Shown here piece after piece: positions 3,181 to 47,335 of a DNA stretch of 58,696 nt. Below the pieces are notes generated by a model. The model ran no database searches and was not told the DNA's origin. It worked only from the letters and a program-made list of their open reading frames with translations. Made by a program: the position numbers and the translations under genes. Numbering within the stretch: position 1 is the stretch's first letter; each line of letters opens with the position of its first letter. The stretch spans positions 1-58,696 of the forward strand of contig JAZAGZ010000071.1 of the NCBI GenBank assembly GCA_036231525.1, given 5' to 3'. The stretch comes from Pseudomonadota bacterium. Its GTDB lineage: Bacteria; Pseudomonadota; Gammaproteobacteria; Steroidobacterales; Rariloculaceae.

Positions 3181-3245
3181 CGGGAGGCGGGTTACCTCAA
3201 CGGGGCGGTCAAACCGCAGCGGCGACACCGGCAACGGTTTGCTGC

Positions 3246-10467: not shown

Positions 10468-10476
10468 GATAGCCTC

Positions 10477-10917: not shown

Positions 10918-11055
10918 ACCACGGACACAGTAGACGGTCGGGCAGTCGATATTGATGGAGAGGTATTACACCTGTACCTAGCTTGTAACTCGCGCCGCTT
11001 CTACATCAATCAAAATGAATTATAGAAGCGACGCAAGTCACAAATTCCCGCGGCT

Positions 11056-12360: not shown

Positions 12361-12375
12361 TTCCTCTTCTTTGTT

Positions 12376-12723
<348 letters not shown>

Positions 12724-12736
12724 TCATAATTCCTAT

Positions 12737-34329: not shown

Positions 34330-34364
34330 AAAAAAGGGACGCTCCAAGAACGGAGCGCCCCCCC
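34330..34364 (-). terminator. rho-independent terminator closing the 47139-34379 transcription unit
   Basis: The minus strand reads GGGGGGCGCTCC-gttctt-GGAGCGTCCC followed by TTTTTT. It begins about 15 nt after the OmpA-like stop codon. Confidence 0.7.
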
Positions 34365-34378: not shown

Positions 34379-35215
34379 CTACTTCTGGGCAACCCGATTT
34401 TCGTTTCCGTTCCTGATGAGTGTCAGATCCACCCGACGCTCCATCGCCATCGAATCGACATCGTTCTCCTCTGCTGCGGCATACGTCTCACCATGCCCAT
34501 CAATCATGATTCTATTGAGTGGAACACCAGCCTCTATCAGTAAATCTCTAACGGAGATAGCACGTTGCGCGGACAGTTGATCGTTATGCTCCTGATCACC
34601 ACGAGAATCTGCGTGCCCTTCAATATGAATCAGTGTTCCATCCAGATCCGCGAGCAATCCTGCAAGGCGTAGCAATCTGTTCTGAGTTTCTCCAGGAAGT
34701 GTGCTTTCATTTGTTCTGAACAAGACCTGGACATCAAGTGCATCGCGAAGAGTGTTCCGCATCTCTCGATTTTCCTGATGGATCTGACTTTCGAGTACTG
34801 CAACTTGATGCTCACTACTGGTAACCAGATCATTCAGTGCTGCTACCTCCTCCTCAGCTTCGGTCCAGCGCTCTTCAAACCGAATTCGTGCGTTGCGCTC
34901 CTCATCGAATCGGTCTCCCAACCAAGCACCTAAAGTGGTCCCAAGAACCAGTCCAACCGGGCCTCCAGCAACTCCACCGATGACTGCACCACCACCGATC
35001 CTGATGGATTGATGTTTCGAAAATCGTGTGTCCTCTGCCGTCCATCCAGTGGAGGCGAACATGATAGCTGCCACCACAGCGATAACGCTTGTACCGAGCA
35101 TCGCACGTATCTTGCGAGCTTTGTTAGCCGAACGTTGTAACTCACGCCGACTGTCGTATATATCTTGCGAGCTTTGGTGATAGTGCTCATTCAGCGTTTT
35201 AATGGGGTTAACCAT
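34379..35215 (-). CDS. bitopic TM / glycine-zipper / coiled-coil protein with a C-terminal OmpA-like peptidoglycan-binding domain
   Basis: TM segment GTSVIAVVAAIMFAS, glycine zipper GGGAVIGGVAGGPVGLVLGTTLGAWLG, and a heptad-rich segment. OmpA_C signature: IHIEGHADSRGDQEHNDQLSAQRAISVRDLL...GHGE...ERRVDL. Strong AAGGAG Shine-Dalgarno. Confidence 0.8.
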   Translation of the reverse strand: MVNPIKTLNEHYHQSSQDIYDSRRELQRSANKARKIRAMLGTSVIAVVAAIMFASTGWTAEDTRFSKHQSIRIGGGAVIGGVAGGPVGLVLGTTLGAWLGDRFDEERNARIRFEERWTEAEEEVAALNDLVTSSEHQVAVLESQIHQENREMRNTLRDALDVQVLFRTNESTLPGETQNRLLRLAGLLADLDGTLIHIEGHADSRGDQEHNDQLSAQRAISVRDLLIEAGVPLNRIMIDGHGETYAAAEENDVDSMAMERRVDLTLIRNGNENRVAQK

Positions 35216-35347
35216 GGCTTACTCCTTATCGATGTTCAGTTGCTACTCGATGCGCTAGCGCACATCAGTATTAGAGTTCATGCCATGGGTTAAACCACTG
35301 ATAAAGTGGGGCAAAGGGCCGGTAAAAAATGACGAATTCTGGCGTCG

Positions 35348-36352
35348 TTAGCCTCGGAGGGAAGGCAAGGCTACAAAGGTTCCGCCGTTCCTTTGGCAGA
35401 GAACTCGCATCAAAATAGCAAAGCGGGCCGAGGTCAATAATTCTCCATTTGTAACTTCGTAATAAACAGGAAAAGCAACGGCATGAATACGAACCCGTCG
35501 AGAGCCATCTTCACCAAGTTGATTACGACGATCTACTTCCCGTACCACTGCATTGATTGATCCCGCGGAAAAATCATCGCTGTAGACATAAAGACTAATC
35601 TTTTTATTAGGATCATAGAAAGTTTGAATAGCCTCTAGAATTCCTTCCCTGGGACTTGAGTTGGAGAACGCCTGCCAGTTGCGCAATCCATCTATAATGC
35701 GTCTTCGGATTTCAGTGCCGTCTGGAATCCACTGGTTTCGGTAACTCCGAAACATATACTCGCCCATGTCGTTGAGCACCTGAATACCCTTGACTTGGGG
35801 GTAGACCTGAAGCGTCTCCGAGATCTGTTGTTGGACACGATCCCAAGCATATCGTTGCATGCTCCCAGAAGTGTCGATAATGAAGATGATGTACTCGCTA
35901 TCCACAGGAATACCGCCCACCATGGACTCATCAGGATCGGGCTGGTAATTCGCTAGCAAACTTTGCATTTCCTCTGTCAATCTTTGCTTCGCCTGGGCTA
36001 ACCGACCCTCCAGCTCATTGGACATTTCAGCGTCATCTTGAGTTGCAAGAAATTCTGCTCGAATCCGCATGAGCTCGCTCTGCAGCTGCGCAATTTGCGT
36101 TTCATCCTGATCCACGTTTTCAATCGTGGCTAATCTTTCTCGCGTAATGATATTTGTTTGACCGATGATGTCCTCTAACTCTTGCTCATACTTAACAACT
36201 AAATTCTCAAGGTCCACATGAGTTTCTTCGAGCCGGATGGGTTCAAATATTTTTGTGATTACGAGAAGAAGTATTACCGCTCCGAATCCACAGCAGACAA
36301 CATCCAGAAATGACAGACTGCCGGTTTCGATATCACGACGCCGCTTTCTCAT
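35348..36352 (-). CDS. Asp-containing TM helix (MotB/ExbD-like) / coiled coil / vWA domain protein, paralog 2
   Basis: N-terminus MRKRRRDIETGSLSFLDVVCCGFGAVILLLVITK, then about 110 aa of acidic heptad-like sequence. The vWA domain has MIDAS IIFIIDTSGSM. The ATG at 36352 forms an ATGA overlap with the upstream stop; the track start is the TTG at 36358. Confidence 0.7.
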   Translation of the reverse strand: MRKRRRDIETGSLSFLDVVCCGFGAVILLLVITKIFEPIRLEETHVDLENLVVKYEQELEDIIGQTNIITRERLATIENVDQDETQIAQLQSELMRIRAEFLATQDDAEMSNELEGRLAQAKQRLTEEMQSLLANYQPDPDESMVGGIPVDSEYIIFIIDTSGSMQRYAWDRVQQQISETLQVYPQVKGIQVLNDMGEYMFRSYRNQWIPDGTEIRRRIIDGLRNWQAFSNSSPREGILEAIQTFYDPNKKISLYVYSDDFSAGSINAVVREVDRRNQLGEDGSRRVRIHAVAFPVYYEVTNGELLTSARFAILMRVLCQRNGGTFVALPSLRG

Positions 36353-37440
36353 GGCCAATCCTCCGAAGGAGCCATCATAGATCCCCCAGTGTTAAGCGCC
36401 AGCCACCAATAAGCTGGTGCAGACTGTGGGTCGCCTTCCATCGCGTACAAAATGATGTTGACCGGTACGTTGAAAGGTAAATCCCTAGTAGCCCGATTGA
36501 AATGTCCCATACGTTCTTTTCCCGTCACACCGGCACGATTTGGAATAACCTCGCCCATGGTCGGTAAACCATCGACCAGCAAATAGATATTGTCAGGCTT
36601 GGGGTCGAGAGGCCTCATAGCAGCAAAAGCAGCATGTAGGCTCGTGGGTCCATCTGGTGCTGTAACTCGTAACGACTCTACGGCTTCTTCCAAAAGATGG
36701 CCATCAGTAACAGTTTGCCACTGACCGTTACTACCCTCGATCAGGCTCCAAGCTGTGTCGTTGAATGCAAAGATTTGAATCTGAGTGCCTGGCTGTATTT
36801 GGGTCGTCAGCCAATCCACCGTATCTACAGTTTGACGCCATTTGGGGGCCTGCAGCTTTTGTTCCATAGGCATGTTGCGACGCCTAATCACATTCACGAT
36901 GGTCCGGTCCAACATGCTTGAGGATGTATCCACCAGTATCACCACCCGCTCCCCACCCATCCTTAGGCCAGTCAGGTATTGTCGGTTCCCGTCTCCGGTG
37001 AAAGCCCTAATGCGATTACCAGCGTCCTCTGGCGTGATGCTAGCCGCAGACAGTCGTTCGCTCTCTTCCTCTAAAGCTTCCAACTCCGAACGAAGTTGCT
37101 CTATCGCTTCTTCCTGTGCTGCCGTGTCCGCGGTCGCTGTGCTAAATTCTTCTTCCGTATCTTGAATCTCTGTAACTATTTCATCTTTAAGTCCCCGTAA
37201 TACGGCCCATTCCTCAATCAACCTTGCCAAGTCATCTGTTAACTGCACAAGATTCTTTCGTCCCGTTAGTACCTTGAGCTCCATTCGATCCACTTCACTC
37301 GCTAAATCCTCAAGAACCGCTTCCCGTCTCAGATCAATGTTGGCATTAATAATCATGAAAAAAAGTATTACCGCGCCAAACCCACACGTCATAGCATCAA
37401 GGAAAGATAGCGAAAAGACATTTATCGACTTACGAGCCAT
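36349..37440 (-). CDS. Asp-containing TM helix (MotB/ExbD-like) / coiled coil / vWA domain protein, paralog 1
   Basis: N-terminus MARKSINVFSLSFLDAMTCGFGAVILFFMIINA, then an acidic coiled-coil-like segment (EEAIEQLRSELEALEEESERL). The vWA domain has MIDAS VVILVDTSSSM, plus APDGPTSL and LLVDGLP. Eleven-nt overlap with the upstream gene. Confidence 0.7.
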   Translation of the reverse strand: MARKSINVFSLSFLDAMTCGFGAVILFFMIINANIDLRREAVLEDLASEVDRMELKVLTGRKNLVQLTDDLARLIEEWAVLRGLKDEIVTEIQDTEEEFSTATADTAAQEEAIEQLRSELEALEEESERLSAASITPEDAGNRIRAFTGDGNRQYLTGLRMGGERVVILVDTSSSMLDRTIVNVIRRRNMPMEQKLQAPKWRQTVDTVDWLTTQIQPGTQIQIFAFNDTAWSLIEGSNGQWQTVTDGHLLEEAVESLRVTAPDGPTSLHAAFAAMRPLDPKPDNIYLLVDGLPTMGEVIPNRAGVTGKERMGHFNRATRDLPFNVPVNIILYAMEGDPQSAPAYWWLALNTGGSMMAPSEDWP

Positions 37441-38842
37441 CGCGATCCTCTAAAGCTATGATTTGTAGCTCTTCCCCTGGCGAACCAATCCGAATAATGT
37501 CCGCGGGATGCAGGTCAACCTCACCGGAGACCCGCTTCTCATTCACGAAGGTACCGAAGCGACTAAGATCCATCAGTTTTATCTCTCCGTCCCTGCGAAC
37601 AACCTCGCAGTGAGCTCGAGAAACAGCGGTTTGGCTCTCATCGAGAACAATTGTATGACGCCCATCAAGAACCTCTCGACCAATAAAAAGAGAAGACCCA
37701 TCAATTGCATAAGCAACGCCACGATAGACTACATGAGTTGGCTCTGGAGCTAATGCCTCGGGATCACCCGTTACGCTCAATATCTGTTCTGGTTCTATGG
37801 GATCTAGTTGAATCGCTTCTCCCCTCCAGGGTAACCGTCTGAGAAGCTTAATCTGCCCACTTGATAACCTAATGTTTTCAAGGCTGCTGAGCGCACCCAG
37901 GGCTGCGGCGCCCGGAGCCATAGGGATGACGTTTGCATCATCCAGACGCATCACTTCATTCACAATACCTGGAAGGCGAAGAAGGCGATGAGATAGTTCC
38001 ACTACCAGACTCGCTCCCGCAGTCCGACATTGAGAAATGAGTTGCACTAGAGCGCGATAAAATCCGTCAGCAACGCCCAACAACTGGTCTCGCTGAATCT
38101 CCACATGGTGCTCTTCTCCACCATAAGGGAGCATAAGCTCAATATGATCCTCATCCTGGAGAGTTGTAAGCCACTCAGGCAACCGATCGTAAACCAGTTG
38201 TTCGGAGTCAGCTCTATGAAATGGGTCAAAGCGCGTTTGAAGGACAAATATCTCAGCTACTCGCTTCGCCCACAGATCGGTAAGCGAAGCGAAACCTACA
38301 CCACTCAGTGCCTGCTCGGGCTCTGCTGCAACATCATCGCCCTGCTCGAGCTGAGTTGCTGACACCCTATGTAATCCAGTGTCAACATAGATCAATTGGT
38401 GGCCCGGATACGGCTGTGTACTCGCAGCGATCCCTGCATCAATCATGGCCCGAACTGGCATCTTGCACTCTTGAGCAAGACCTAAAAGTAGTCCGAGTTG
38501 CTCACGCGTATAATGTCCAGGCACCACTAGGATTACATCCTTTTTGGAACCTCCAAAACGCTTCCAAAGAAGATCCAACTGCGTAAAAGCAAGCTCGGCC
38601 GAGCTTTCTACAGTATCAATGCCCGCACTTCCAGGTTCGAGACTCAAATCGTTCCAGTAACGATTGCTGGTTTGTCGCGGGTTCAATCGAGCCTGAGCAT
38701 ACGCTTCCACTCCAGTAACTATTGAATCATCTTTCAATACCAACGCAGCATATCCGGGCTCTTGCGCAAGGATCCCCGTATGGTCAGCGACCACCAGTTC
38801 AGCATCGTTAATATCGATGGCTAGCGTGCTTACGTTGCTCAA
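37430..38842 (-). CDS. cytoplasmic Hsp70/actin-fold-like protein fused to a C-terminal FHA domain
   Basis: LAIDINDAELVV, VILVVPGHYTREQLGLLLGLAQECKMPVRAMIDAGIAAS and LIYVDTGLHRVSAT align in order with the Hsp70 phosphate-1, connect and phosphate-2 motifs, but are degenerate. The C-terminus has a canonical FHA: FIGRE...VSRAHCEV...LMDLSRFGTFVNEKRV. The TTG start abuts the MotA-like stop. Confidence 0.6.
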   Translation of the reverse strand: MSNVSTLAIDINDAELVVADHTGILAQEPGYAALVLKDDSIVTGVEAYAQARLNPRQTSNRYWNDLSLEPGSAGIDTVESSAELAFTQLDLLWKRFGGSKKDVILVVPGHYTREQLGLLLGLAQECKMPVRAMIDAGIAASTQPYPGHQLIYVDTGLHRVSATQLEQGDDVAAEPEQALSGVGFASLTDLWAKRVAEIFVLQTRFDPFHRADSEQLVYDRLPEWLTTLQDEDHIELMLPYGGEEHHVEIQRDQLLGVADGFYRALVQLISQCRTAGASLVVELSHRLLRLPGIVNEVMRLDDANVIPMAPGAAALGALSSLENIRLSSGQIKLLRRLPWRGEAIQLDPIEPEQILSVTGDPEALAPEPTHVVYRGVAYAIDGSSLFIGREVLDGRHTIVLDESQTAVSRAHCEVVRRDGEIKLMDLSRFGTFVNEKRVSGEVDLHPADIIRIGSPGEELQIIALEDRDGS

Positions 38843-39649
38843 CTATGCTCCTCCACGAGCCTGCATGTGTCGTATGAGGTTATGATCGATATAGGTCTGG
38901 GTTTCGAAAACCTGCCGCTCCTGCAAGAGCTGAAGCTGGTGTACCAGAAACATCACCACAATTGAGATCAGTAATGCGATAAACGTACTGTTGAAGGCCG
39001 TACCAAGACTTTGCGTAACGCCTGCTATATCACCATCCACTGCACGATGCGCTTGGCCCAAAGCTTCACCGATACCCCGGACGGTACCAATAAACCCAAC
39101 TGACGGGATTGCCCACGCAATATAACGAATCATGGACAGCTCGGATTCAAGCCTCTCACTTTCGGACTCACACAGGGTATTTGCGACGGAGGACACGTCC
39201 TGAACATTTCGTGTAGACCCGAAACGCTCTAGCGCAGACAAGAGAGCCCGCGGTAACAGCATACCGCGCACGGTGCCCGGCAACGATTGAATCGTACGTG
39301 CGTACTCTCGGGTATCTTCCGGAAGAATTCGAACACCTTCCCCGACCGGTAAGAGCTCCTCTTGTAGTAATTTACGCTCTCCGGCCGCTTTGATCGCCTT
39401 GTAACCCATGATAGAAAATGCCCATAGCATTAAAACGAAACAAGCTTCCTGCTCGAAATCTCGAATTAGAACGTATAAGGAACGCTCAGGTGTGTAATTT
39501 GCATCTTCCTGAATTCGTAGTGCCTGTTCATCTATGATAGAGGTTGCCTGCGGACGAACGACCGTCACGTAAACAGCATGCACCAAAATCACAGCGATAA
39601 TTAGAGCGAATACCTGATAGAGAAATTCGTTGGGCAAATTACGTTTCAT
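38843..39649 (-). CDS. MotA/TolQ/ExbB-family proton channel protein
   Basis: 268 aa with four predicted TM helices and an approximately 90-aa loop between TM2 and TM3. Family signature in the last two helices: IAWAIPSVGFIGTVRGIGEAL...SLGTAFNSTFIALLISIVVMFL. Confidence 0.75.
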   Translation of the reverse strand: MKRNLPNEFLYQVFALIIAVILVHAVYVTVVRPQATSIIDEQALRIQEDANYTPERSLYVLIRDFEQEACFVLMLWAFSIMGYKAIKAAGERKLLQEELLPVGEGVRILPEDTREYARTIQSLPGTVRGMLLPRALLSALERFGSTRNVQDVSSVANTLCESESERLESELSMIRYIAWAIPSVGFIGTVRGIGEALGQAHRAVDGDIAGVTQSLGTAFNSTFIALLISIVVMFLVHQLQLLQERQVFETQTYIDHNLIRHMQARGGA

Positions 39650-39696
39650 TAATCTATGCTCTTCTAAAAAAACTCTGTTATCTGTTAAGGACCCAG

Positions 39697-39909
39697 TTAA
39701 ATATTCACCGGAAATACAATTTCTTCATCTGCAGCTATTTCTTCACTAGGAATAAAAATCTCACTCAAAGATCTCGTATCCGGCGGCTGGGGTGCAGACT
39801 CAGTCGATGCCGGTGGAGCAGTTTCCTCAGGCTCCGTATCCTGACTTACTACAGAAAATGGCATTGTCGCCAATAACATCATGGTAAAACCTGTACGTGC
39901 TATAGCCAC
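39697..39909 (-). CDS. small secreted acidic/Pro-rich protein (70 aa)
   Basis: Signal-like N-terminus MAIARTGFTMMLLATMPFSVVSQ, then DTEPEETAPPASTESAPQPPD...EEIAADEEIVFPVNI. It sits in an operonic position between two larger genes. Confidence 0.45.
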   Translation of the reverse strand: MAIARTGFTMMLLATMPFSVVSQDTEPEETAPPASTESAPQPPDTRSLSEIFIPSEEIAADEEIVFPVNI

Positions 39910-39958
39910 AGCTTACACTCCCAAACCACCTAGTTTATTAGACAAGATTGCGCACCAA

Positions 39959-42415
39959 TCATTCCAAATTTCGAGCAATACGAAACCCAGTCTTTTCATC
40001 GCCTACTACACTGTAGTTTCGGGAAGCTGAGCGCAAGTCCGTTATCGTTGCACTTCGCCAATTAGCACCCCTTATCACATGGAAACGCCCAGTTTCCGGA
40101 CCGAGCGGATCTTCTAGAACAGTCTCGGTCTGAGTTTGACCTACCTGATAATAATCCTGCACCCACTCCGACACATTCCCACCGAGATCAAAAATCCCCA
40201 CAGCGTTAGCATCAAAGCTCCCCGATGGCGCCGTAGTGCTAAAACCATCGTTATAGGTCACGAGCGTTGTCGACAACAATTGTGCAGCGGATACATCAGC
40301 ATAATTGCCAGACCTATCTGGAGGCGGCAACGCAGCTCCCCAAGGATACGTCAGAGGGTCCTCCCGTGCAGCGAAGCGTGCTGCCCACGCCCATTCAGCT
40401 TCTGTTGGCAATCGATAACCGTTACGCAACGGCCTAACCGCAGTCCACCTCCCGTCACCTACTTCCTCGTAAACCGGTTGGAACCCGTCCTGGATGCTCA
40501 ACCAATTCATAAATTGAGCAACTTCCTCCCAAGTAATTCTCACCACCGGTTGATCATCCTCATTAAGGGAAACCCATGTGTGGACCCCTGAGTTATGATC
40601 AGCTTTGAATGCCCTAAATTCAGCATTACTAACCTCTTTGACCCCGAGATAAAACGCATTGTTAAGTCTCACTGCACGCAGTGCCTCATTTGAACGGCGA
40701 CCTTGTTCACGACGAGAAGAACCCATTGTGAACTCACCAGGAAGCACCAGCCTCAGTTCCTGTTCCAAGCTTGTCTGCACAACTCTGAGATACCCAGATC
40801 CGGTTGTTGTATCCAACTCCTCCAGCATTGTCTCCCACTTCTGAGGAAACCCTGGCCTAGGGGTGATCGTTGTCGACTGCAGCTTAAACCCGGTTAATCG
40901 TAGTTCGAGTTCATGGCTTACAGCATTTAGTGTTAGTTGAGCTGGGGTCACACCCCGAAGCTCACCGTCCACGAAAATTTGTGCGGCTGGAGGTGTACTC
41001 AATATCTCAACGATTCCAAGTTGAGCAACCATTGGAATCACAACCCTCTGCCCACTATCTGCCAATACCGAAAACTCTCTTGTCACAGACTCATAACCCG
41101 GCTTTGTTAATGCAATAGTATGAGGTTGTTCAGGAGTAAGTCGCAGGGTCAACGGTGTTTGCCCTTGAAATGAACCGTCCACGCTAACTGCCGCACCGGT
41201 AGGGTTGCTAATAAGCTCTACTCGTCCATCTGCTTGAGTTAGGCTAACCTCAGGTAAGGTCAACGCCTGATCTGCCAGCACAGTAATATTATCTTGCCAA
41301 GCGTTATAGCCTCTGAGCCGCACTTCAACTTGGCGTTCACCCGCACCTAACTCCAAAATCGCAGGAGTCGACCCAAGTAGCATTCCATCGACTAGAATCT
41401 CAGCGCCTGTCGGGCGGCTGCTCAAACTGACGGGCGCCCAGTTAGGGGTCAAAGCACCCGAAAAGGTTTGACGTTGATGCTCTCCAATCACCTCAAACTC
41501 AAGAACCTCTGAAAGATAACGCTCAGCAAAATACTCAATGCTATGCCGACCGGGAACAATCTCAATGTCACTCAAGGGCGCCGTCCCGAGGAAAATACCA
41601 TCCACATGCACGTTGGCACCAACATCTGGCTCTGTCACAAAAGTAATGAGTCCAGGTAATTTCGTGAATTCCAAACGCACGGACTGATCAGGTGATTGGC
41701 CCACTTCGACCACCTCATCCAGGGGATAGTAGCCCTCTAACCGTGCAGAGATATGATGCGATCCTGATCGCAGTAAAAACCGATCCCCCATTTGCACCTT
41801 AAAGAGTGTGCCCGGTATCTCCAATTCCTCTGGTGCCGGCTCAATAATGAGTTCGACTGATTTTGCCGTAAACGCAAACCAACCAAACACCGCTAGTAGC
41901 GCAAAAGCGCTGCCAACCATCATTGCCGACCGGTTAGGTCGTACCCTTAAACCACTGGTCTTTGCGTCCGCCTGAGAACGAAAAGTGATTGGAGCGATCT
42001 CAACTTCGTCAACCGCACCTATCTCTCGTGCGAGTTCTTCTAGATCTGGTGGGGCCGTATCACCTCCAGTTATCTGGCCTTCGATGTACAAGCTGAGCCG
42101 GCCAGCGCCAAGATCGCACCGGACCCGAGCAGTATCTAACGAAGCGGTTTCACCATCCTTTAGCCAACGGGATCCTACAATCGACTCTCCTTCGAGCCGC
42201 AATCCTCGGGTCTCTTTACCCGGTTGAATAAAGAATTCTCCATCAAGCGCACCGATCTGAAACGAGCCAGACACACCATGGAGTCGCACATCACACTCTG
42301 CGCCTCCACCAATTAGCACTGGCAAGTCACCGGCCGTAAAGTGGCGTTCCTGCCCGCCGGCAGAAGTCATTAGCACCCAGTTCTCAGACTCCATCATCAG
42401 ATTGACTCTACACAT
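39959..42415 (-). CDS. FHA-like / TM / PEGA-repeat / FGE-sulfatase(SUMF1)-like transmembrane protein
   Basis: The N-terminal approximately 110 aa have an FHA-like pattern (LPVLIGGGAECDVRL...GEFFIQ...LKDGE) but lack the canonical Arg/Ser/His/Asn. TM segment SAMMVGSAFALLAVFGWFAF. Four clear PEGA units: GANVHVDGIFLGTAPL, GAEILVDGMLLGSTPA, GAAVSVDGSFQGQTPL, AAQIFVDGELRGVTPA. The C-terminal FGE-like domain contains MGSSRREQGRRSNE...YLGVKEVSNAEF...RGANWRSA. An alternative start at 42397 gives a TGATG overlap. Confidence 0.7.
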   Translation of the reverse strand: MCRVNLMMESENWVLMTSAGGQERHFTAGDLPVLIGGGAECDVRLHGVSGSFQIGALDGEFFIQPGKETRGLRLEGESIVGSRWLKDGETASLDTARVRCDLGAGRLSLYIEGQITGGDTAPPDLEELAREIGAVDEVEIAPITFRSQADAKTSGLRVRPNRSAMMVGSAFALLAVFGWFAFTAKSVELIIEPAPEELEIPGTLFKVQMGDRFLLRSGSHHISARLEGYYPLDEVVEVGQSPDQSVRLEFTKLPGLITFVTEPDVGANVHVDGIFLGTAPLSDIEIVPGRHSIEYFAERYLSEVLEFEVIGEHQRQTFSGALTPNWAPVSLSSRPTGAEILVDGMLLGSTPAILELGAGERQVEVRLRGYNAWQDNITVLADQALTLPEVSLTQADGRVELISNPTGAAVSVDGSFQGQTPLTLRLTPEQPHTIALTKPGYESVTREFSVLADSGQRVVIPMVAQLGIVEILSTPPAAQIFVDGELRGVTPAQLTLNAVSHELELRLTGFKLQSTTITPRPGFPQKWETMLEELDTTTGSGYLRVVQTSLEQELRLVLPGEFTMGSSRREQGRRSNEALRAVRLNNAFYLGVKEVSNAEFRAFKADHNSGVHTWVSLNEDDQPVVRITWEEVAQFMNWLSIQDGFQPVYEEVGDGRWTAVRPLRNGYRLPTEAEWAWAARFAAREDPLTYPWGAALPPPDRSGNYADVSAAQLLSTTLVTYNDGFSTTAPSGSFDANAVGIFDLGGNVSEWVQDYYQVGQTQTETVLEDPLGPETGRFHVIRGANWRSATITDLRSASRNYSVVGDEKTGFRIARNLE

Positions 42416-43911
42416 TCCACCATAATCGGGGAGAGCTCCCGTCCAGGTATCACATTAAATGTTTGCCGGACGTCAACGAAGCCATCCCTACTACCCACGA
42501 CCGTGTAGCTGCCAGGCCGTAGCTCCAGGTTTCTGACACGAAATTTTCCTAGTTGGCCCACCCTGTACACCGTAACCTCAGTCTGTTCATCAGAGTGAAT
42601 CTCAACACGAATAGGCGTCGAAGCTAAACGAACCAATCGACTAAGTTCAGTGATTTGCTCTTCCAGCCGAGGTCCAGCCTCGGAGATGCCATGTGCCTCG
42701 GTCAACAGGTTCTCCGTATCACGCAATACTCGGTCATTAAACAGTAAGTCAGGGTTCTCGATAATATTTATCAGTTTGAGATCCAGGTCTACTCTGCTTT
42801 GCGCCCTCTGAAGCCCCTGCTGTGCAAACGCCAGGCTGGAATCCGTCTCTAGCGCATCCCGATATTGCCCGATAGCCAGCTCCCAAAGCTCCCTCAGTTC
42901 AAAAGCTAGTGCACGTGCTTCCACGAGCGCGATCTGATCGAGTTTTTGCCCTTGTTCTGCTTGAGTCTGACCATCCAAAGCATTGCGAGAATCCGGGCGA
43001 AGAACTAACGCCTGGGTAAAGAACTCATAGGCATCATCGTAATCCTCTTGCGCCAGATTACTTAGCCCCTGAGACATAAGCGTATCGAATCGCCTGTTCT
43101 GAATCACGGTGTTGACCGCCACTAACGCAGATTGTGCCGGTACCCAAAGACTGTCTATTACCAGTGCCTCACGATAACCCTCGGCTGCCTCTTCAAGGTT
43201 CCCGGCACGCTCAAACTCCTCAGCAACCCGCATCAACTCCAACACTTCGGGTAATTGCTGCGCTCTGAGCAAACCGGTTTGTGCGAGAGAATTTTCCGCT
43301 TCGATTCTAAGAACCAATTCAAACTGCTCCAACGCTACCGCCGAATTGCCAGCCTCAAGAGCTTCGCCGCCCGCGCTAAGCGCCGCAGTAATAAGCTCTA
43401 TCGAACGCTCAAGCAATTCCTCTCCCAATTCCAAAGCCTGAGAATAAGCAGGAACCGCATCATAAAAGGCATCTATGAGGTAAGCGTCATCGCCCTCCCT
43501 CGAAAGAGCCTGATAAAGCCCAAAATCCTCTCCCCCCCACTCAGAAACAGACTGTCCATCTAGCTCACCCTGCTGACTCAGTAAAAGCGCTAACAAACTT
43601 TCAGCCTGATCCCTCAGATCTTCCAATTCCTCAGGTGTAAAAAAAGGACCTTCAGACACCGCAGGAGTGTCAAGTTGCGTCCCCTCCACAACAGGTACTT
43701 GTTCCCCTTGCTCCTCAACCCAGTTTGGTAAAACAAAGAACACCACCCCTGCTATCGCAATCAGAACGCCCAGTAGAACTCCGGGGAGTGAAATCATGCC
43801 CGTCCGTTTAGGGTCATCCCTAAAATTGTTTGACCGGGCGCCCTTGAGTCCTGGTCTGACCGGAACAATGGCTTCTTCATGCCCGGGATTTTGAGGCTGT
43901 TGATCTGTCAT
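42397..43911 (-). CDS. bitopic TM protein with periplasmic TPR-like repeats and a C-terminal PEGA-like beta domain
   Basis: TM segment LPGVLLGVLIAIAGVVFFVL. Repeated helical A/E/L-rich units such as GNLEEAAEGYREALVIDSLWVPA and EDYDDAYEFFTQALVLRPDS. The C-terminus is LRPGSYTVVGSRDGFVDVRQTFNV. ATGA overlap with the kinase gene. Confidence 0.55.
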   Translation of the reverse strand: MTDQQPQNPGHEEAIVPVRPGLKGARSNNFRDDPKRTGMISLPGVLLGVLIAIAGVVFFVLPNWVEEQGEQVPVVEGTQLDTPAVSEGPFFTPEELEDLRDQAESLLALLLSQQGELDGQSVSEWGGEDFGLYQALSREGDDAYLIDAFYDAVPAYSQALELGEELLERSIELITAALSAGGEALEAGNSAVALEQFELVLRIEAENSLAQTGLLRAQQLPEVLELMRVAEEFERAGNLEEAAEGYREALVIDSLWVPAQSALVAVNTVIQNRRFDTLMSQGLSNLAQEDYDDAYEFFTQALVLRPDSRNALDGQTQAEQGQKLDQIALVEARALAFELRELWELAIGQYRDALETDSSLAFAQQGLQRAQSRVDLDLKLINIIENPDLLFNDRVLRDTENLLTEAHGISEAGPRLEEQITELSRLVRLASTPIRVEIHSDEQTEVTVYRVGQLGKFRVRNLELRPGSYTVVGSRDGFVDVRQTFNVIPGRELSPIMVECVESI

Positions 43912-44774
43912 GGTCTTTGCATCATAGACAATTCAATTGACGCCAATTCTAAGGCATCGGCAAAGGGACTGATGTCCTCATACGGCCCCTTTGTAGCAGG
44001 ACTTAACACTTTAAATACAAGCTCGGCCAGAGACTTTAAGCCCTCAATCCCACCAGATTCGAGTATTTTCAAGGGTCTGCAGAATTTTTCGAGCATTTCC
44101 AAAGACGGGTTCCTGCCAAAAGGTAGAGTACCGGTCCAAAGCTCGTAGATCAGAGCAGCAAAAGAGTACACATCATCACCCACAGTTGCCGGACCACCTT
44201 GCCTCTGGTTTGCGCTTTGGTAGTCAGCCGTGCCACCGCCTTGGTGTGCACGCGTACCAACTGACACAGCGAGACTGAAATCGATTAAACACGGCTCATC
44301 CCCGGGGCGCAGTAAAACGTTCCGCACCTTTATATCACGATGGAGAATTCCCAAAGCATGCATATACCCCAGCGCGCTCGCGAGTTGGGCGGCCACTGGC
44401 ACCCACTGCCGAGGCTTACCACCTGCTAGAGATACCAAGTCTCCCCCCCCTACGTACTCCATTACGAGACCGATCTCTCCACCCATCTCTATGAGCCCCA
44501 ACACAGAAACAATATTTCTGTGTGAAAGGTCATTAAGAAATCTGTACTCCCGAAGAATAAGCTCGCGAGTCGCTACACGATTCATTACATCTGGATTAGA
44601 TGCCTTGACTGCAATCGGAGTTCCCGTAGATCTTGTCGCCGCCCATACCTGGGACATACCACCCTGACCCAGGCATGCACCCAGACAAAGCTCCTCTTCG
44701 AAGGGCTCGGGGGTTATATGGAAAAGTGGGTTATTCACGGAACCGAAAAGGGAGCGCCTTGATAAGAGCGCCAA
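43908..44774 (-). CDS. stand-alone Hanks-type Ser/Thr protein kinase (catalytic domain only)
   Basis: Gly loop LGQGGMSQVW, VAIK-like IAVK, catalytic loop HRDIKVRNVLL, DFG replaced by DFS, subdomain IX DVYSFAALIYELWTGTLPF. No TM helix or extra domain. Confidence 0.8.
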   Translation of the reverse strand: MALLSRRSLFGSVNNPLFHITPEPFEEELCLGACLGQGGMSQVWAATRSTGTPIAVKASNPDVMNRVATRELILREYRFLNDLSHRNIVSVLGLIEMGGEIGLVMEYVGGGDLVSLAGGKPRQWVPVAAQLASALGYMHALGILHRDIKVRNVLLRPGDEPCLIDFSLAVSVGTRAHQGGGTADYQSANQRQGGPATVGDDVYSFAALIYELWTGTLPFGRNPSLEMLEKFCRPLKILESGGIEGLKSLAELVFKVLSPATKGPYEDISPFADALELASIELSMMQRP

Positions 44775-44787
44775 CCGTGCGGACCAC

Positions 44788-46110
44788 TCAAACGCCGGTG
44801 GTTACCTCGCCGTCACTATCGGCGCTCTCTTTCGCCTTACTACTTTCCTCAAGCAACTCGGTCTCCTCCTCCGACGGAACCTCAGATAATGCCTCCGTGT
44901 AGATATCCACCTCGGGGACTAGCCCCGTCTCTGATTGATATAGCTGTAACAGAAGCTCGCGCCACTCTTCATATTGAGCATCAGCAGTTCCAGTAAGCCG
45001 GTGCTGAACCCCCTCAATATCAACAACCATGGGTCTGACCTCCTCATCAAAGCTAGAGGAAAGTTCCTCAAGGCTTGCTGTATGCAACCGCCTCTCCTGC
45101 CGACGAAGAGCTCCAGTTCTTATCATATCCATGCTCATATACATGATGGAATCGCGGAGAACTCGCTGGGAGTAACTATTATTACCACCGCTACTCCCAT
45201 AAAGAACGGATGCTACAACTCCCGCGATGCCCAAACCCGTCCGCCAGTTAGCCGAACGTTGTAACTCTCGAATAGCAAGTGCCTCTTCACGAGCGAACTC
45301 GCGCCAACCGTCGTATGAATCTTGCGAATTTTGGTAGAAGTCCACGTAGTGCTCGTTCAGCGTTTCGATGAACAGATGCTCACGTTCGCGCACACGCAAA
45401 GTACGCTCAAATTGAGGGTCATCCTCAGCTGGTAAGCGTCTCAGCTCATATGCACCATTGCGTCTCTGCTCCACATAATCACCGAACGCTTCGGGACTAA
45501 GTTCCCCTGCAAAACGAATCTGAGACACCGAGCGGATGTTTCGCGCCTCGGTTGACGATAAGTCGCCCCTAACTGCAGCAAGATCGTTGGCAATATTATT
45601 AAAGACGTCCTGATATGGATCAAGATCGGGATACCGCTGTCGATTGTATGACCCGGCAGCGGTTTCCATACCATACTCGTCATCTAACCATATCCTGCCG
45701 GTCGCATCAGTGGCTATCACATCCAGTCGTACCCGATCGCCATCTGATTGGCGAATCTCCGCGGTAATATTGATGTCGGCGGCAGTCGACTCTTCTGGGG
45801 TTACCCATACACCTCCCCAGTGACCACTCTTTTGAAGAGTGTCCCTAAGGTGGACTGCCATGTAACGTGCCTCTGTACGACGAATCTGAACGAAGGTTCC
45901 ATCATTAATGAGCTCCTCAAGTAGCTCATGATCAATCTCACCTTCGGGAACCCCCGAATCAAACACGACTATGCTAACGTCTAGCAGCTCTTCTTCAGGC
46001 ACGGTCGCTGTCTCAGGCACAAGCTCAACGGAGTGAGCAACAATAACTTCATTGCTGCTGCACCCGGAAACTACACCTGCGATCAAGATCAGTATGCCAA
46101 TTCGCCGCAT
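44788..46110 (-). CDS. lipoprotein of unknown function (440 aa) with an acidic C-terminal tail
   Basis: Lipobox IAGVVSGCSS. One internal hydrophobic Gly-rich segment, GLGIAGVVASVLYGSSGG. The C-terminal tail is EVPSEEETELLEESSKAKESADSDGE. Confidence 0.55.
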   Translation of the reverse strand: MRRIGILILIAGVVSGCSSNEVIVAHSVELVPETATVPEEELLDVSIVVFDSGVPEGEIDHELLEELINDGTFVQIRRTEARYMAVHLRDTLQKSGHWGGVWVTPEESTAADINITAEIRQSDGDRVRLDVIATDATGRIWLDDEYGMETAAGSYNRQRYPDLDPYQDVFNNIANDLAAVRGDLSSTEARNIRSVSQIRFAGELSPEAFGDYVEQRRNGAYELRRLPAEDDPQFERTLRVREREHLFIETLNEHYVDFYQNSQDSYDGWREFAREEALAIRELQRSANWRTGLGIAGVVASVLYGSSGGNNSYSQRVLRDSIMYMSMDMIRTGALRRQERRLHTASLEELSSSFDEEVRPMVVDIEGVQHRLTGTADAQYEEWRELLLQLYQSETGLVPEVDIYTEALSEVPSEEETELLEESSKAKESADSDGEVTTGV

Positions 46111-46122
46111 AACTCTCTCCGT

Positions 46123-47139
46123 CTACTGACGTCCCAATATTCTTTTGTACTCGTTGTACTCTTCCCAGAGGGCAGCACGTAAAAACGGGTCCTCCTCGTC
46201 GGTTGCCGCCTCACAAAGCTGTCGAGCAACCGTATTTTCGTCTTCACAACCCTCAACCTGGGGAGTAGTACGCTCCCGTGGTGCGGACTGTTCGAAAACA
46301 GATCCGCTACCAGATGTGGAGTCGCCACCACTGCTATTAACATTGCCGCCACCACTTGTACCCGATGGCTGTCCGTCACCTTCTCCCGCTATAGTACTAC
46401 CAGAACCGGAACCAGTCGTCATACCTCCACCCGCGCTGGAACCAGCGCCGACAGCACCAGCCTCGCGAAAGATCTCATCTGCTGCCGAACCAATCCCCTG
46501 TTGCGCCATCTGCTCGCGCTCGGCGCCCATAATCTCGTCAAAATCTTCCAACGATCGATTAAAGCCTCCCTCTGCCTCGGATGCTGCTGGGCTGCCGTTA
46601 CCGAATCCACTGTCGCCACCAGGCCACCCACCGTCAACTTGCTCACCCCCAGCCCCTTGGCCTGACTGATCAACACCCGCCTGGCGAGTATCACCATTCC
46701 CACCGTCAGAGCCTTCTGTCTGATTGTCTCCACCGGTATCTTGACCAGCCTGCTCCTGTCCACCTTGACCTGGAAGTGCACCGCCAGGGAAATTACCCTG
46801 CTGACCCTGCTGACCCTGCTGCCCGGCCTGCTGTTGACCTTGCTGACCCTGCTGACCCTGTTGACCTTGCTGGCCCTGCTGCCCGGCCTGCTGTTGACCC
46901 TGTTGACCTTGCTGGCCCTGCTGCCCGGCCTGCTGTTGGCCCTGCTGGCTTTGTTGGCTCTGCTGGCTCTGAGACTGGCTCTGAGACTGGCTCTGAGACT
47001 GGCTCTGAGACTGGCTCTGGGACTGGCTCTGGGACTGGCTCTGGGACCGGCTCTGCTGCTGCGGTGGTGTCACACAACCCACAAGCATGGCTGATATAAA
47101 CAAAGCCAAAAACCGGCATCGGGCACTCTTTAAGAGCAT
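46123..47139 (-). CDS. low-complexity lipoprotein: SQ dipeptide array, Q/G-rich array, G/S/D-rich region and a small structured Cys-containing C-terminus
   Basis: GAGGTG Shine-Dalgarno 7 nt before the ATG at 47139. Signal peptide with lipobox AMLVGC. About 14 consecutive SQ dipeptides, then QQGQQ/QQAGQQ repeats. The C-terminal approximately 60 aa are non-repetitive (VEGCEDENTVARQLCEAATDEEDPFLRAALWEEYNEYKRILGRQ). Confidence 0.65.
   Translation of the reverse strand: MLLKSARCRFLALFISAMLVGCVTPPQQQSRSQSQSQSQSQSQSQSQSQSQSQSQSQSQQSQQSQQGQQQAGQQGQQGQQGQQQAGQQGQQGQQGQQGQQGQQQAGQQGQQGQQGNFPGGALPGQGGQEQAGQDTGGDNQTEGSDGGNGDTRQAGVDQSGQGAGGEQVDGGWPGGDSGFGNGSPAASEAEGGFNRSLEDFDEIMGAEREQMAQQGIGSAADEIFREAGAVGAGSSAGGGMTTGSGSGSTIAGEGDGQPSGTSGGGNVNSSGGDSTSGSGSVFEQSAPRERTTPQVEGCEDENTVARQLCEAATDEEDPFLRAALWEEYNEYKRILGRQ
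46798..46964. repeat. imperfect 9-nt-periodic tandem repeats (CTG-YTG-RCC units; encode the QQG array) with higher-order repeats
   Basis: Runs of CTGCTGACC / CTGTTGACC / TTGCTGGCC units. The longer unit containing GCCCGGCCTGCTGTTG recurs at about 46821, 46881 and 46923. Confidence 0.8.
46965..47048. repeat. perfect/near-perfect 12-nt tandem repeat, 7 copies (encodes the SQ array)
   Basis: The plus strand reads GGCTCTGAGACT four times, then GGCTCTGGGACT twice, then GGCTCTGGGACC once. The copies are head to tail and in frame within the 46123-47139 CDS. Confidence 0.9.
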
Positions 47140-47335
47140 TAGTCACCTCACTTTTCAGAGCAGGGTCCTATATTAACTTTAGTTCACCTGCGAGAGCGGA
47201 AGTTCACTTTAAAAACGTCTTCCGCCTCCAACTTCCAACATACTCCACTAACGCGTGGGCAATTTAAGGGTTGACGCGGCTCTCCTGCTGGTCAAAGCTG
47301 GTAAGAGACGTGCCCAACCCATTGAAAGGACAGCC

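Follow-up and report, generated by a model that had tools for sequence, protein, structure and literature searches.

A conserved envelope gene cluster combining a MotA/TolQ-like channel, a pair of vWA proteins and a kinase/FHA module: a candidate proton-driven motor

Open reading frame calls on the window, that is, the whole stretch of 58,696 nucleotides analyzed here, identified eleven co-directional genes (g1 to g11), all on the minus strand. These genes and the signals at both ends of the operon are as follows:

47144..47149, minus strand: Shine-Dalgarno sequence GAGGTG of g1, read from the sequence; 5 nt separate it from the ATG at 47139
46123..47139, minus strand: g1, lipoprotein; lipobox LVGC, low-complexity SQ/QQG region and, at the C terminus, a conserved motif of ~35 aa
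44788..46110, minus strand: g2, orphan lipoprotein of 440 aa (lipobox VSGC)
43908..44774, minus strand: g3, Hanks-type Ser/Thr kinase domain located in the cytoplasm; kinase half of a receptor kinase, here split off (Pkinase, 1.1e-31)
42397..43911, minus strand: g4, TM helix, periplasmic TPR and a beta-sandwich at the C terminus; sensor half of that receptor kinase (TPR_1, 9.5e-10)
39959..42415, minus strand: g5, cytoplasmic N-domain, TM helix, PEGA repeats and an apparently non-catalytic FGE-sulfatase-fold domain (PEGA and FGE-sulfatase HMMs)
39697..39909, minus strand: g6, small secreted acidic protein with the C-terminal motif F-x-P-S-E-x-I-x-A-D-x-x-I-x-F-P-V-x-I-COOH
38843..39649, minus strand: g7, channel subunit of the MotA/TolQ/ExbB family containing four hydrophobic segments (PF01618)
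37430..38842, minus strand: g8, cytoplasmic Hsp70-NBD-fold domain (residues 1-~340) and canonical FHA domain (~370-462) (FHA, 1.5e-13, and fold search)
36349..37440, minus strand: g9 (vWA-1), N-in TM helix with Asp15, continuous helix of ~120 residues and periplasmic vWA domain with DxSxS (HMM and AF2)
35348..36358, minus strand: g10 (vWA-2), paralogue of g9 with Asp19, stalk and vWA domain (sequence comparison)
34379..35215, minus strand: g11, accessory exported glycine-zipper/coiled-coil/OmpA-like peptidoglycan-binding protein (OmpA, 8.6e-19; DUF456/Gly-zipper match)
34333..34364, minus strand: intrinsic terminator closing the operon, with a 14-bp stem (8 GC pairs), a 4-nt loop and a T-run

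The intergenic spacings from g1 to g11 are 12, 13, -4, -19, 49, 47, 0, -11, -4, and 132 nt; that of g4/g5 becomes -1 if g5 starts at Met7, and that of g9/g10 is -4 with the g10 ATG at 36352, the likely start, and -10 with a TTG start. Gene number and orientation, spacings, Shine-Dalgarno sequence and terminator all agreed with the initial annotation, and nearly all domain assignments were backed by HMM or fold search. Housekeeping genes flank the operon: bioF/bioD-like genes and a cyclase at one end, DUF4399 and a PALP enzyme at the opposite end; the base composition is uniform.

Assignment of g7 to the MotA/TolQ/ExbB channels, first made from motifs, was corroborated by a score of 54 bits against MotA_ExbB (PF01618), for which the cut-off is 22.9. 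No other protein of the cluster is as well conserved as g7 (>60% identity across phyla), and of 68 homologues at least 98% keep the motifs GTV (T189) and NST (T222) in the last two TM helices. HMM searches matched none of the eleven operon proteins to the ExbD, TolR, or MotB families, the OmpA domain of g11 excepted. In both g9 and g10, basic residues at the N terminus precede S-F-L-D-x-x-x-C-G-F-G, a TM Asp context of the same kind as PFIDVML of ExbD and PLLDVLL of TolR, as had been proposed, and this Asp (codons 37396-37398 for g9 Asp15 and 36302-36304 for g10 Asp19) is invariant across phyla in both paralogues. D15, F13, and G22 of g9 were invariant in 43 representatives (31-62% identity) and 82 locus sequences, and among 76 locus sequences of g10, SFLD and CGFG were retained in at least 98% and the MIDAS loop DTSGSM in at least 90%; the MIDAS Asp is missing from the most distant vWA-1 relatives. 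The predicted paralogy of the two proteins was verified (E 2e-12). Although the vWA domains of the window scored only 19 and 17.9 bits, under the Pfam cut-off, 35 of 43 diverse family members matched VWA_2 (best 2.7e-12), and the AF2 model of vWA-1 (pLDDT 87), a single 127-residue helix (8-134) followed by a vWA fold, resembled the solved vWA domains of CLCA1 (E 7e-8) and BatB in Foldseek, so the vWA assignment was upheld. Furthermore, the Asp-to-MIDAS distance was constant in 70 loci (152-158 residues for g9 and 139-145 for g10), indicating a stalk of fixed length although its sequence is poorly conserved. At 50% identity, the vWA-1 family falls into 1346 clusters.

Relatives of the module occur in at least 586 species genomes, and the comparison covered 53 loci with complete flanking sequence, drawn from at least five phyla. 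The order Q-rich lipoprotein, orphan lipoprotein, kinase-TM-TPR protein, TM-PEGA-FGE-like protein, small acidic secreted protein, MotA-like protein, Hsp70-fold/FHA protein, vWA-1, vWA-2 is conserved in Gammaproteobacteria, Acidobacteriota, Desulfobacterales, Myxococcales, and Spirochaetales. Synteny beyond close relatives, on which the initial annotation had staked its reading, was therefore found, with gene order shared across phyla. The vWA pair is adjacent and present in one copy each in all 53 loci, and homologues of g4, g5, and g8 each occur in 52, of g2 in 51, and of g7 in 50; the single Kiritimatiellae locus showed the vWA pair only. In three loci (L004, L005, and L010) no MotA-like gene lies within 10 kb and all other partners are kept, and three further loci have a divergent MotA-like copy after vWA-2. 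The kinase, present in 39 of 53 loci and absent from 14, is the most dispensable core part. As a unit of eleven genes, the cluster is not universal, since the OmpA-like gene occurs in a minority of loci and kinase and TPR protein are mostly one gene. The kinase forms the N terminus of the TPR protein in 28 related loci, commonly as a protein of 770-815 aa, and is a separate ORF in 11; it is fused in most lineages and split in the window.

The kinase and TM-TPR protein had both been recognized correctly. By sequence reading, g3 carries the VAIK Lys, HRD, and DFS motifs, and g4 has one TM helix (residues 42-60) and a weak CarboxypepD_reg match. The description of g8 as an Hsp70-like protein with a canonical FHA domain was likewise confirmed: its AF2 model reached a pLDDT of 91, and all 50 listed PDB matches in Foldseek were Hsp70-family proteins or Hsp70 NBDs (best E 3e-18), whereas no sequence HMM detected this domain. 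DnaK carries the phosphate-loop motifs DLGTTNS and DLGGGTFD; at those places g8 has INDAEL and VDTGLHRV, and because the Gly-rich loops are missing, its use of ATP is uncertain. The g8 FHA domain bears the phospho-threonine pocket G-R...S-R-x-H...N. The S-R-x-H...N part was kept in 34 of 38 kinase-bearing loci versus 0 of 11 kinase-less ones (Fisher 5e-8, uncorrected for phylogeny), the latter belonging to several separate taxa, and the Arg of the G-R pair is replaced by T, S, or L in most of the distant kinase-bearing homologues. Thus, kinase loss co-varies with erosion of the g8 phospho-threonine pocket, which supports the phospho-threonine signaling link suggested earlier; absence of the kinase from 14 loci indicates that phospho-signaling is not obligatory.

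Among the envelope partners, the two lipoproteins were identified correctly, both lipoboxes being directly visible in the sequence. The C-terminal motif of g1 (VARQLCEAATDEEDPFLRAALWEEYNEYK) was found upstream of g2 in 40 of 53 loci, across phyla, and g1 matched no family in Pfam or NCBIfam; DNA tandem repeats lie within g1 at 46795-47055. For g2, no Pfam or PDB sequence match was obtained, even with a profile of 18 homologues. The PEGA, FGE, and TM parts ascribed to g5 were substantiated (PEGA, 1.7e-40 in three stretches; FGE-sulfatase, 1.2e-38; TM, 164-182), whereas the FHA-like part reached only sub-threshold scores, 0.0046 in one homologue with no match for g5 of the window, and the N-domain is possibly a degenerate FHA/YscD-like domain. 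In an unaligned comparison with the motif of human FGE, other residues appear to stand in place of its Cys pair in the C-terminal region of g5 (...RSATITDLRSASRNY...GFRIARN). No Pfam family was found for g6; nevertheless, a g6-like ORF with a signal peptide, an acidic region, and the same C-terminal motif was seen in most related loci examined, in all phyla sampled, between g5 and the MotA-like gene or, where the latter has moved or is missing, g8.

The coiled coil and OmpA domain proposed for g11 were retained, but its TM anchoring was not. The true start is probably Met39 (35101), the nearest NCBIfam family is PdsO (115 bits; cut-off, 152), and g11 homologues carry plain signal peptides at the N terminus and lack the TM Asp. 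They occur in 20 of 53 loci, exclusively in Gammaproteobacteria. A TM-anchored, MotB-like g11 was ruled out by the signal peptide and the lack of Asp in the hydrophobic segment; g11 is a lineage-specific add-on, not MotB. Because the protein is exported, the idea that a TM/OmpA anchor tethers the machine to the wall was wrong as stated.

"TPH-vWA" motors were predicted in silico by Williams-Jones et al. in 2025 (PMC12204202). In that study, vWA proteins tethered by a TMH and bearing a conserved Asp are mostly encoded as heterologous pairs in close linkage with tolQ-like genes, tolR/exbD being absent, and an AF3 model places the vWA helices inside a TolQ-like pentamer, where Thr residues encircle the two Asp residues. 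The vWA proteins of the window appear to belong to the same family as the Idiomarina proteins described there. Therefore, the machine is not undescribed in its core, since a motor with a vWA pair as the ExbD/TolR-like partner has already been predicted, whereas we found no paper describing the partner genes or the rest of the module. Added here to the published core are a larger, strongly conserved multi-gene module, the kinase/FHA co-variation, and the status of g11.

With slightly better than even confidence, we read the locus as a chromosomal, vertically conserved, kinase/FHA-regulated and proton-driven envelope motor of the 5:2 type. Five g7 copies would enclose the N-terminal helices of both partners in a putative g9/g10 heterodimer, a complex that we infer by analogy and from the one published AF3 prediction, apparently for the same family (PMC12204202). 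Because each vWA helix bears an invariant Asp, which would bind protons, the pair may substitute for ExbD/TolR/MotB. Its stalk, estimated at ~15 nm, would carry two MIDAS-bearing heads toward the wall and outer membrane, and rotation or tension may be handed to periplasmic partners, for which the g5 scaffold, the lipoproteins g1 and g2, and g6 are candidates, the conserved acidic C terminus of g6 being a candidate MIDAS ligand. The receptor kinase g3+g4 would sense something periplasmic via its TPR domain, and kinase-generated phospho-threonine may recruit or switch g8, and perhaps g5, thus presumably signaling toward control of motor assembly or activity, much as PpkA-Fha1 controls type VI secretion. 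Our best guess for the output is force transduction for outer-membrane/cell-wall homeostasis or surface-polymer handling, over motility or defense.

It is improbable that the module serves chiefly in transmembrane Ser/Thr-kinase envelope-stress signaling, with the MotA-like and vWA proteins as sensors or scaffolds performing no mechanical work. Conservation of the TPR receptor kinase, of the canonical FHA domain and a second, possible one, and of the Hsp70-fold protein would suit such a role, as would the kinase/FHA co-variation and the three loci missing the MotA-like gene; however, the kinase is the part most often lost and the MotA-like gene and vWA pair the most constant, g7 is best conserved and keeps its proton-path residues, and, unless ion coupling is assumed, it is difficult to account for a membrane-buried Asp that never varies.

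In GldLM/PorLM, a 5:2 motor, a long periplasmic dimer drives a ring made of GldK/PorK, a lipoprotein with the FGE fold. We give similarly little credence to a secretion or surface-movement apparatus like this type IX/gliding core, in which a motor-driven ring of the PEGA/FGE protein would export a surface component or set it in motion. The nearest NCBIfam family of the g5 C-terminal domain is indeed GldK/PorK (4.8e-27), the catalytic Cys pair of true FGE appears lost, the vWA dimer has a long rigid stalk, and conservation of the cluster extends to two lipoproteins and a secreted peptide. Nevertheless, the GldK score is 95 bits against a cut-off of 350, the likeness being limited to the generic FGE-sulfatase domain, and g5 is anchored in the inner membrane rather than being an outer-membrane lipoprotein. 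In addition, an outer-membrane translocon, PorN/GldN, Sov/SprA, and a cargo signal are all absent from the cluster, and the phyla carrying it are not known for T9SS.

A conventional MotA/MotB-type stator of g7 and g11, with the vWA proteins merely co-regulated and BatA/BatB-like, is very unlikely. Its attractions are the hydrophobic N-terminal segment and the OmpA domain of g11, the latter matching MotB/MotD/ZorB models, the MotA-like gene directly preceding the g11 homologue in L006, L007, and L011, and BatB among the Foldseek vWA matches. Yet the g11 signal peptides are ordinary cleavable ones, the gene is present in a minority of loci, against a near-universal MotA-like gene and vWA pair, the invariant Asp resides in the vWA helices, and the MoxR and DUF58 genes of Bat operons were not found in the operon.

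Zorya-type antiphage defense, with an effector coupled to a MotAB-like sensor that detects perturbation of the envelope, is the least credible explanation, and phage defense, initially listed among the open functions, is unlikely, because the PADLOC matches (PD-T4-6/Mad6 kinase models, besides a weak ZorA match with E 0.0026 and ZorB matches via the OmpA domain) are to generic kinase/OmpA domains, the operon lacks a nuclease, ZorC/D, and any other effector, copies of the cluster on plasmids or phages were not found, and the chromosomal context is housekeeping and of uniform composition. Instead, sequence identity declines gradually from close to distant relatives across whole phyla while the gene order is unchanged, which fits vertical inheritance of a core function.

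Eleven open reading frames (ORFs), all on the minus strand between positions 34379 and 47139, were confirmed in the window, and the recomputed spacings from the first gene (g1) to the last (g11) agreed with those originally read, namely 12, 13, −4, −19 or −1, 49, 47, 0, −11, −4 (ATG at 36352), and 132 nt. A Shine-Dalgarno sequence, GAGGTG, was located at 47149-47144, 5 nt upstream of the first ATG, and a terminator consisting of a 14-bp GC-rich hairpin and a T-run was found at 34364-34333, downstream of the last gene. The base composition of the window is uniform, and the cluster is flanked by ordinary metabolic genes, with BioF/BioD-like genes and a cyclase gene on one side and DUF4399 and PALP enzyme genes on the other. 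The DUF4399 gene (47255-47770, plus strand) is divergent and lies upstream of the operon, as it does in a 69%-identical relative (L001, positions 1-54); in distant phyla it lies outside the module. Initial annotation had interpreted this cluster as an undescribed ion-driven machine, an interpretation that was borne out in part. Pfam confirmed its domain calls for MotA_ExbB (54.1 bits, cut-off 22.9), Pkinase (1e-31), TPR (9.5e-10), PEGA (1.7e-40), FGE-sulfatase (1.2e-38), FHA (1.5e-13), and OmpA (8.6e-19).

At 50% identity the vWA-1 (g9) family fell into 1346 clusters, of which 289 had E ≤ 1e-30, and a species scan with one genome per species confirmed at least 586 loci. Eighty loci were kept, and the eleven window proteins were compared with all ORFs; 53 of these loci had enough flanking sequence to be used for counts. 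The 80 loci belonged to Gammaproteobacteria (Woeseiaceae, Chromatiales, Pseudomonadales, and Thiotrichales), Acidobacteriota (Vicinamibacteria, Holophagae, and Thermoanaerobaculia), Desulfobacterales, Myxococcales, Kiritimatiellae, and Spirochaetales. MAGs labelled Woeseia (L045 and L063) were among the carriers.

Genes of the cluster (34379-47139, minus strand, g1 first) and their presence in the 53 loci with full flanks.
g1, Q-rich lipoprotein: 40/53
g2, orphan lipoprotein: 51/53
g3, kinase: 39/53
g4, transmembrane (TM) TPR protein: 52/53
g5, TM-PEGA/FGE protein: 52/53
g6, 70-aa acidic secreted protein: an ORF at this position in nearly every locus
g7, MotA/TolQ-like channel: 50/53
g8, Hsp70-fold/FHA protein: 52/53
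g9, vWA-1: 53/53
g10, vWA-2: 53/53
g11, OmpA-like protein: 20/53

The same gene order was nearly always found, and two further contigs with independent gene calls agreed. The core therefore consists of nine genes (ten domains), joined by an OmpA-type accessory gene that occurs only in gammaproteobacterial loci; four of the conserved parts have no family assignment.

The channel protein g7 fell in PF01618, the MotA/TolQ/ExbB family, and its GTV (T189) and NST (T222) motifs, in the last two TM helices, were kept in at least 98% of 68 homologues; T189 and T222 were equated with TolQ T145 and T178 by motif rather than by structure. The specific models fell far below their cut-offs on g7, at 28.6 bits for TolQ (cut-off 221), 21.1 for ExbB (cut-off 135), and 15 for MotA1 (cut-off 304). 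HMM searches for ExbD, TolR, and MotB_plug found no match in any of the eleven cluster proteins. The locus resembles Tol-Pal and Ton in its PF01618 pentamer-type subunit with Thr motifs, in the Asp of the partner helix, placed in a hydrophobic context of the L-L-D-V type, and in companions such as a TPR protein and lipoproteins, joined here by an OmpA/Pal-like peptidoglycan binder. In contrast to those systems, however, it has no TolR/ExbD domain, TolA/TonB, TolB, or TonB box. TolQ and ExbB have three TM helices, whereas g7 has four hydrophobic segments, and the cytoplasmic kinase/FHA partners found here further set it apart. In one gammaproteobacterial clade (MAG isolates “MFD...”, vWA-1 55-66% identical), the MotA-like gene was gone from the slot between g6 and g8. 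Three loci (L006, L007, and L011) carried a 42%-identical MotA-like copy after vWA-2, beside the OmpA-like gene (locus coordinates ~8200-13000). HMM and tblastn searches detected no MotA-like gene or pseudogene within 10 kb in L004, L005, and L010, all other partners being intact.

Both g9 and g10 begin with a basic stretch followed by S-L-S-F-L-D-(A/V)-x-x-C-G-F-G-A-V-I-L, which forms a single N-in TM helix carrying D15 in g9 and D19 in g10. The Asp contexts of ExbD (PFIDVML) and TolR (PLLDVLL) are of the same kind. This trans-pore helix contains no His, and the SHLS motif of TolA/TonB is absent. F13, D15, and G22 of vWA-1 were invariant in 43 representatives 31-62% identical to vWA-1, and the TM Asp and CGFG motif were conserved in at least 98% of both paralogues (82 and 76 sequences from fetched loci). 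The two proteins are paralogous (E 2e-12), and one vWA-1 and one vWA-2 were present in 53 of the 53 loci. Across 70 loci, 152-158 residues separate the TM Asp from the MIDAS loop in vWA-1, and 139-145 in vWA-2. Because this distance is constant despite poor conservation of the stalk sequence, it suggests a stalk of defined length, which would measure ~15 nm if wholly helical. Co-variation of stalk length between g9 and g10, examined as a check on the heterodimer, gave a Pearson coefficient of 0.31 and a Spearman coefficient of 0.15, the lengths being too constant to inform.

On their own, the vWA proteins of the window scored below the Pfam cut-off; the vWA call made for them was upheld by the wider family, 35 of 43 diverse members of which matched VWA_2 (best 2.7e-12). 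An AlphaFold2 model of vWA-1 (pLDDT 87) showed an unbroken helix at residues 8-134 followed by a vWA fold, and Foldseek matched this model to the CLCA1 VWA (7e-8) and also to BatB, ITIH1, and ANTXR2. Comparison of the vWA-1 profile with PDB sequences returned mostly coiled-coil noise, with marginal vWA matches to ITIH4 (0.0017) and VWA2 (0.031). The loops of the putative DxSxS...T...D metal-ion site (MIDAS) read DTSSS in g9 and DTSGS in g10, and S173 and D290 were invariant; the most distant relatives have another residue in place of the first MIDAS Asp.

A full-text search returned one paper alone for the motor system, that of Williams-Jones et al. (Mol Biol Evol 2025; PMC12204202, Fig. 4c-d), which predicted motors made of trans-pore-helix vWA (TPH-vWA) proteins and a TolQ-like subunit. 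There, genes for TM-tethered vWA proteins are tightly linked to a tolQ-like gene with no tolR/exbD; the vWA proteins are “predominantly found in heterologous pairs” and have a trans-pore helix with a conserved Asp, which AF3 models put inside a ring of pentamer Thr residues. The family was found mainly in Proteobacteria and Verrucomicrobia, lacks the SHLS motif, and was assigned no function (PMC12204202). Every descriptive feature of these motors was found in the window locus, a likeness by description and not by sequence comparison with the Idiomarina loihiensis seed, and the locus appears to belong to the TolQ-like/TPH-vWA family predicted in 2025 (PMC12204202). Since the locus matches that description in full, the motor core cannot be called undescribed, and the priority claim is corrected accordingly: the distinguishing swap of the family, a vWA heterodimer in place of the usual ExbD/TolR/MotB axle, is already in the literature. 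The nine-gene module, its control layer of receptor kinase, FHA, and Hsp70-fold protein, and its four orphan parts do appear to be undescribed. In the parts of the text and supplements of PMC12204202 that were available, no mention was found of a kinase, FHA, Hsp70-fold, PEGA/FGE, the two lipoproteins, or the small secreted protein, and the search for other literature on the partner genes found none. As far as we found, the TPH-vWA family has no phenotype and one paragraph of in silico description so far. Two departures from that description were seen: going by the locus survey, the partner genes are as conserved as the motor, and the module also occurs in Acidobacteriota, Desulfobacterota, Myxococcota, and Spirochaetota. 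The present data thus place the motor in a nine-gene module conserved across phyla that includes a receptor kinase, a canonical FHA reader, possibly joined by a degenerate second one, and an Hsp70-fold protein, and they define a gene set for genetics or cryo-ET of the family. Aravind-lab papers on vWA proteins, PMC7159879 among them, appear to deal with cytoplasmic MoxR-vWA conflict systems and not with the present one.

The N-terminal 340 residues of g8 matched nothing by sequence search, and its Hsp70 fold emerged only from structure prediction, for which the alignment was built from database hits. Against PDB sequences, g8 matched FHA domains alone, at E > 0.1, with no match for the N-terminal domain. 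The g8 model (pLDDT 91) nevertheless bore out the earlier Hsp70-like call: all 50 Foldseek PDB matches listed were Hsp70 family members or nucleotide-binding domains, with a best E of 3e-18 and a target-normalised TM-score of up to 0.74 against isolated Hsp70 nucleotide-binding domains. D13 and D154 of this domain are invariant, and Pfam HSP70 found no match; because the Gly-rich phosphate loops are absent, ATPase activity appears doubtful. The FHA pocket in the window is canonical (GR...SRAH...N). The S-R-x-H...N pocket was intact in 34 of 38 kinase-bearing loci but in none of the 11 kinase-less ones (Fisher 5e-8, a statistic uncorrected for phylogeny), although most of the distant kinase-bearing homologues have another residue in place of the G-R Arg. 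The kinase-less loci came from several separate taxa, including L002, a close relative of the window, Desulfobacterales, a Thiotrichales-like group, a Spirochaetales MAG, and others. If the kinase relays to the FHA protein, the pocket should be lost time and again along with the kinase, and the joint loss seen here fits such a putative relay. In L002, the nearest relative (vWA-1 84% identical; locus 585-3510), no kinase gene lies between g2 and the TPR gene, and the g8 pocket reads SQ..S-Q-x-Y where the window has GR..S-R-x-H; kinase and phospho-threonine reader seem to have been lost as a pair, and recently. In 28 loci the TPR protein itself carries the kinase at its N terminus and is thus a kinase-TM-TPR receptor kinase of 770-815 aa; in the window kinase and TPR protein are split, and the two halves overlap by ATGA.

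Judged from sequence, the 70-aa ORF g6 is a real gene. Its counterparts start with a signal peptide, contain a low-complexity acidic stretch, and end in the motif F-x-P-[ST]-E-x-[IV]-x-A-D-x-x-[IV]-x-F-P-x-D-I-stop. The Q/S/G-rich lipoprotein g1 is likewise defined by a C-terminal motif, ...DDDIVARQLREAA..E.DP.LRE.LWEEYR.YK, and conservation in other phyla is confined to its last ~35 residues. Within g1, positions 46795-47055 hold DNA tandem arrays (periods 9, 12, 42, and 60) that encode SQSQSQ... and QQGQQG... runs; the repeat number is likely to vary between strains. For the orphan lipoprotein g2, no Pfam or PDB relative was found, even with a profile. The protein g5 has an internal TM helix and no lipobox. 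An FHA-like domain had been proposed at its N terminus; sub-threshold FHA/YscD support was found in homologues only, Pfam finds nothing in the window protein, and the assignment is not established.

Taken together, we propose a kinase/FHA-regulated, proton-driven motor with a vWA axle, a model that we regard as moderately probable; confidence is higher for the core of the motor and for the link between kinase and FHA, and low for the output. Five g7 subunits would surround the two Asp helices of the g9/g10 heterodimer, in a 5:2 complex like that modelled by AF3 for the family (PMC12204202), and proton flow would drive relative rotation. The stalk would hold the two MIDAS vWA heads near the wall or the outer membrane, where they may engage a co-conserved periplasmic protein, the invariant acidic C terminus of g6 and the conserved helix of g1 being the obvious candidate MIDAS ligands. 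The PEGA/FGE protein g5 is a possible surrounding scaffold, because its nearest named relative is the ring-forming GldK/PorK and because it apparently lacks the catalytic Cys pair of a true FGE. In the cytoplasm, the receptor kinase would sense through its TPR domain and make phospho-threonine sites, which would bring the Hsp70-fold/FHA protein to the motor or free it from there, much like the gating of type VI secretion by PpkA-Fha1. Against this model stand the three loci without a MotA-like gene, the absence of the kinase from a quarter of loci, the loss of the Gly-rich loops in g8, and the divergent channel copy in three relatives. For the output, we favour envelope force transduction over motility or defence. 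More tentatively, and rather improbably as a whole, the nine conserved proteins may form an uncharacterised trans-envelope machine of its own class, in which the MIDAS heads of the vWA heterodimer axle grip the g6 C terminus (...FPVDI-COOH) or the g1 C-terminal helix and pull or turn an outer-membrane or cell-wall target within a PEGA/FGE cage; an Hsp70-fold/FHA clutch would let the receptor kinase switch the machine on and off. Phospho-threonine gating of the motor, the candidate MIDAS ligands, and the fixed-length stalk are offered as testable hypotheses. Ion-driven 5:2 motors are at work in flagella, TonB uptake, Tol-Pal division, gliding, type IX secretion, and Zorya defence, and every output added to that list has been a significant discovery. 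If the reading as a trans-envelope machine is true, no bacterial 5:2 motor before it will have been shown to have phospho-threonine gating, and it would give a new energised envelope function to Woeseiaceae, Acidobacteriota, and Desulfobacterota, which are abundant in sediment and soil.

The reading as a signalling-only module is weakened, since conservation is highest for the motor genes and lowest for the kinase. The T6SS PpkA/Fha1(TagH)/TagQRST pathway shares with the locus a Hanks kinase with a periplasmic sensor, an FHA reader, lipoproteins, a periplasmic vWA (carried there by PpkA), and, as proposed for the locus, post-translational gating of a machine. It differs in several respects: neither T6SS genes nor a PppA phosphatase occur in the cluster, TagH scored 26 bits against a cut-off of 120, the vWA sits on the motor axle rather than the kinase, and the FHA is fused to an Hsp70-fold domain. 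A T9SS-like apparatus holds by analogy only. GldLM/PorLM-PorKN shares a 5:2-type motor, a long periplasmic dimer extension, and an apparently non-catalytic FGE-sulfatase-fold partner; however, there is no homology between the subunits here and GldL/GldM, the models for GldK and GldJ fell far below their cut-offs (GldK 95 bits on g5 against 350, below equivalog level), the FGE-fold protein is inner-membrane anchored with PEGA repeats, and the cluster contains no T9SS outer-membrane parts.

Anti-phage defence is an unlikely function. Zorya ZorAB, like Agl-Glt, is a TolQR/MotAB-like motor with a non-canonical output, but PADLOC returned only generic kinase and OmpA-domain matches (ZorA E 0.0026, ZorB through the OmpA domain) with no effector, plasmid and phage searches found no copies of the module, and the context is housekeeping. 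The defence and mobile-element readings were therefore rejected, as the PADLOC matches were generic and the plasmid and phage searches empty. Agl-Glt of Myxococcus also has TPR proteins, the vWA adhesin CglB, and an actin-fold MreB platform; in contrast, no Glt or ZorCD components and no long ZorA-type cytoplasmic tail occur here, and the Agl-Glt vWA protein is an outer-membrane lipoprotein, not a pore subunit. A MotA/MotB stator with g11 as MotB was rejected, since g11 carries a signal peptide, lacks the Asp, and is only patchily distributed.

Nor is g11 the inner-membrane anchor once proposed: its homologues start with an ordinary signal peptide and continue with a glycine zipper, a coiled coil, and OmpA, and their hydrophobic segments all lack an Asp. 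Assignment of g11 as PdsO was tried and rejected (114.7 bits, cut-off 152.2; no sortase in the cluster or the flanking genes scanned). Its first 38 codons (35102-35215, minus strand) are a diverged copy of g2 codons ~248-275 (45241-45369, minus strand), with the first ~85 nt mostly identical DNA and a protein match of E 8e-9. No g11 homologue has this N-terminal extension, and all begin at the signal peptide equivalent to Met39. The extension looks like a small intra-operon duplication in the g10-g11 spacer, and if so, the true spacer would be ~246 nt, not 132. Elsewhere in the window, a cobalamin riboswitch (2984-3182, plus strand; Rfam RF00174, 102.9 bits, gathering score 31.5) lies upstream of plus-strand genes starting at 3246 and is unrelated to the motor cluster.
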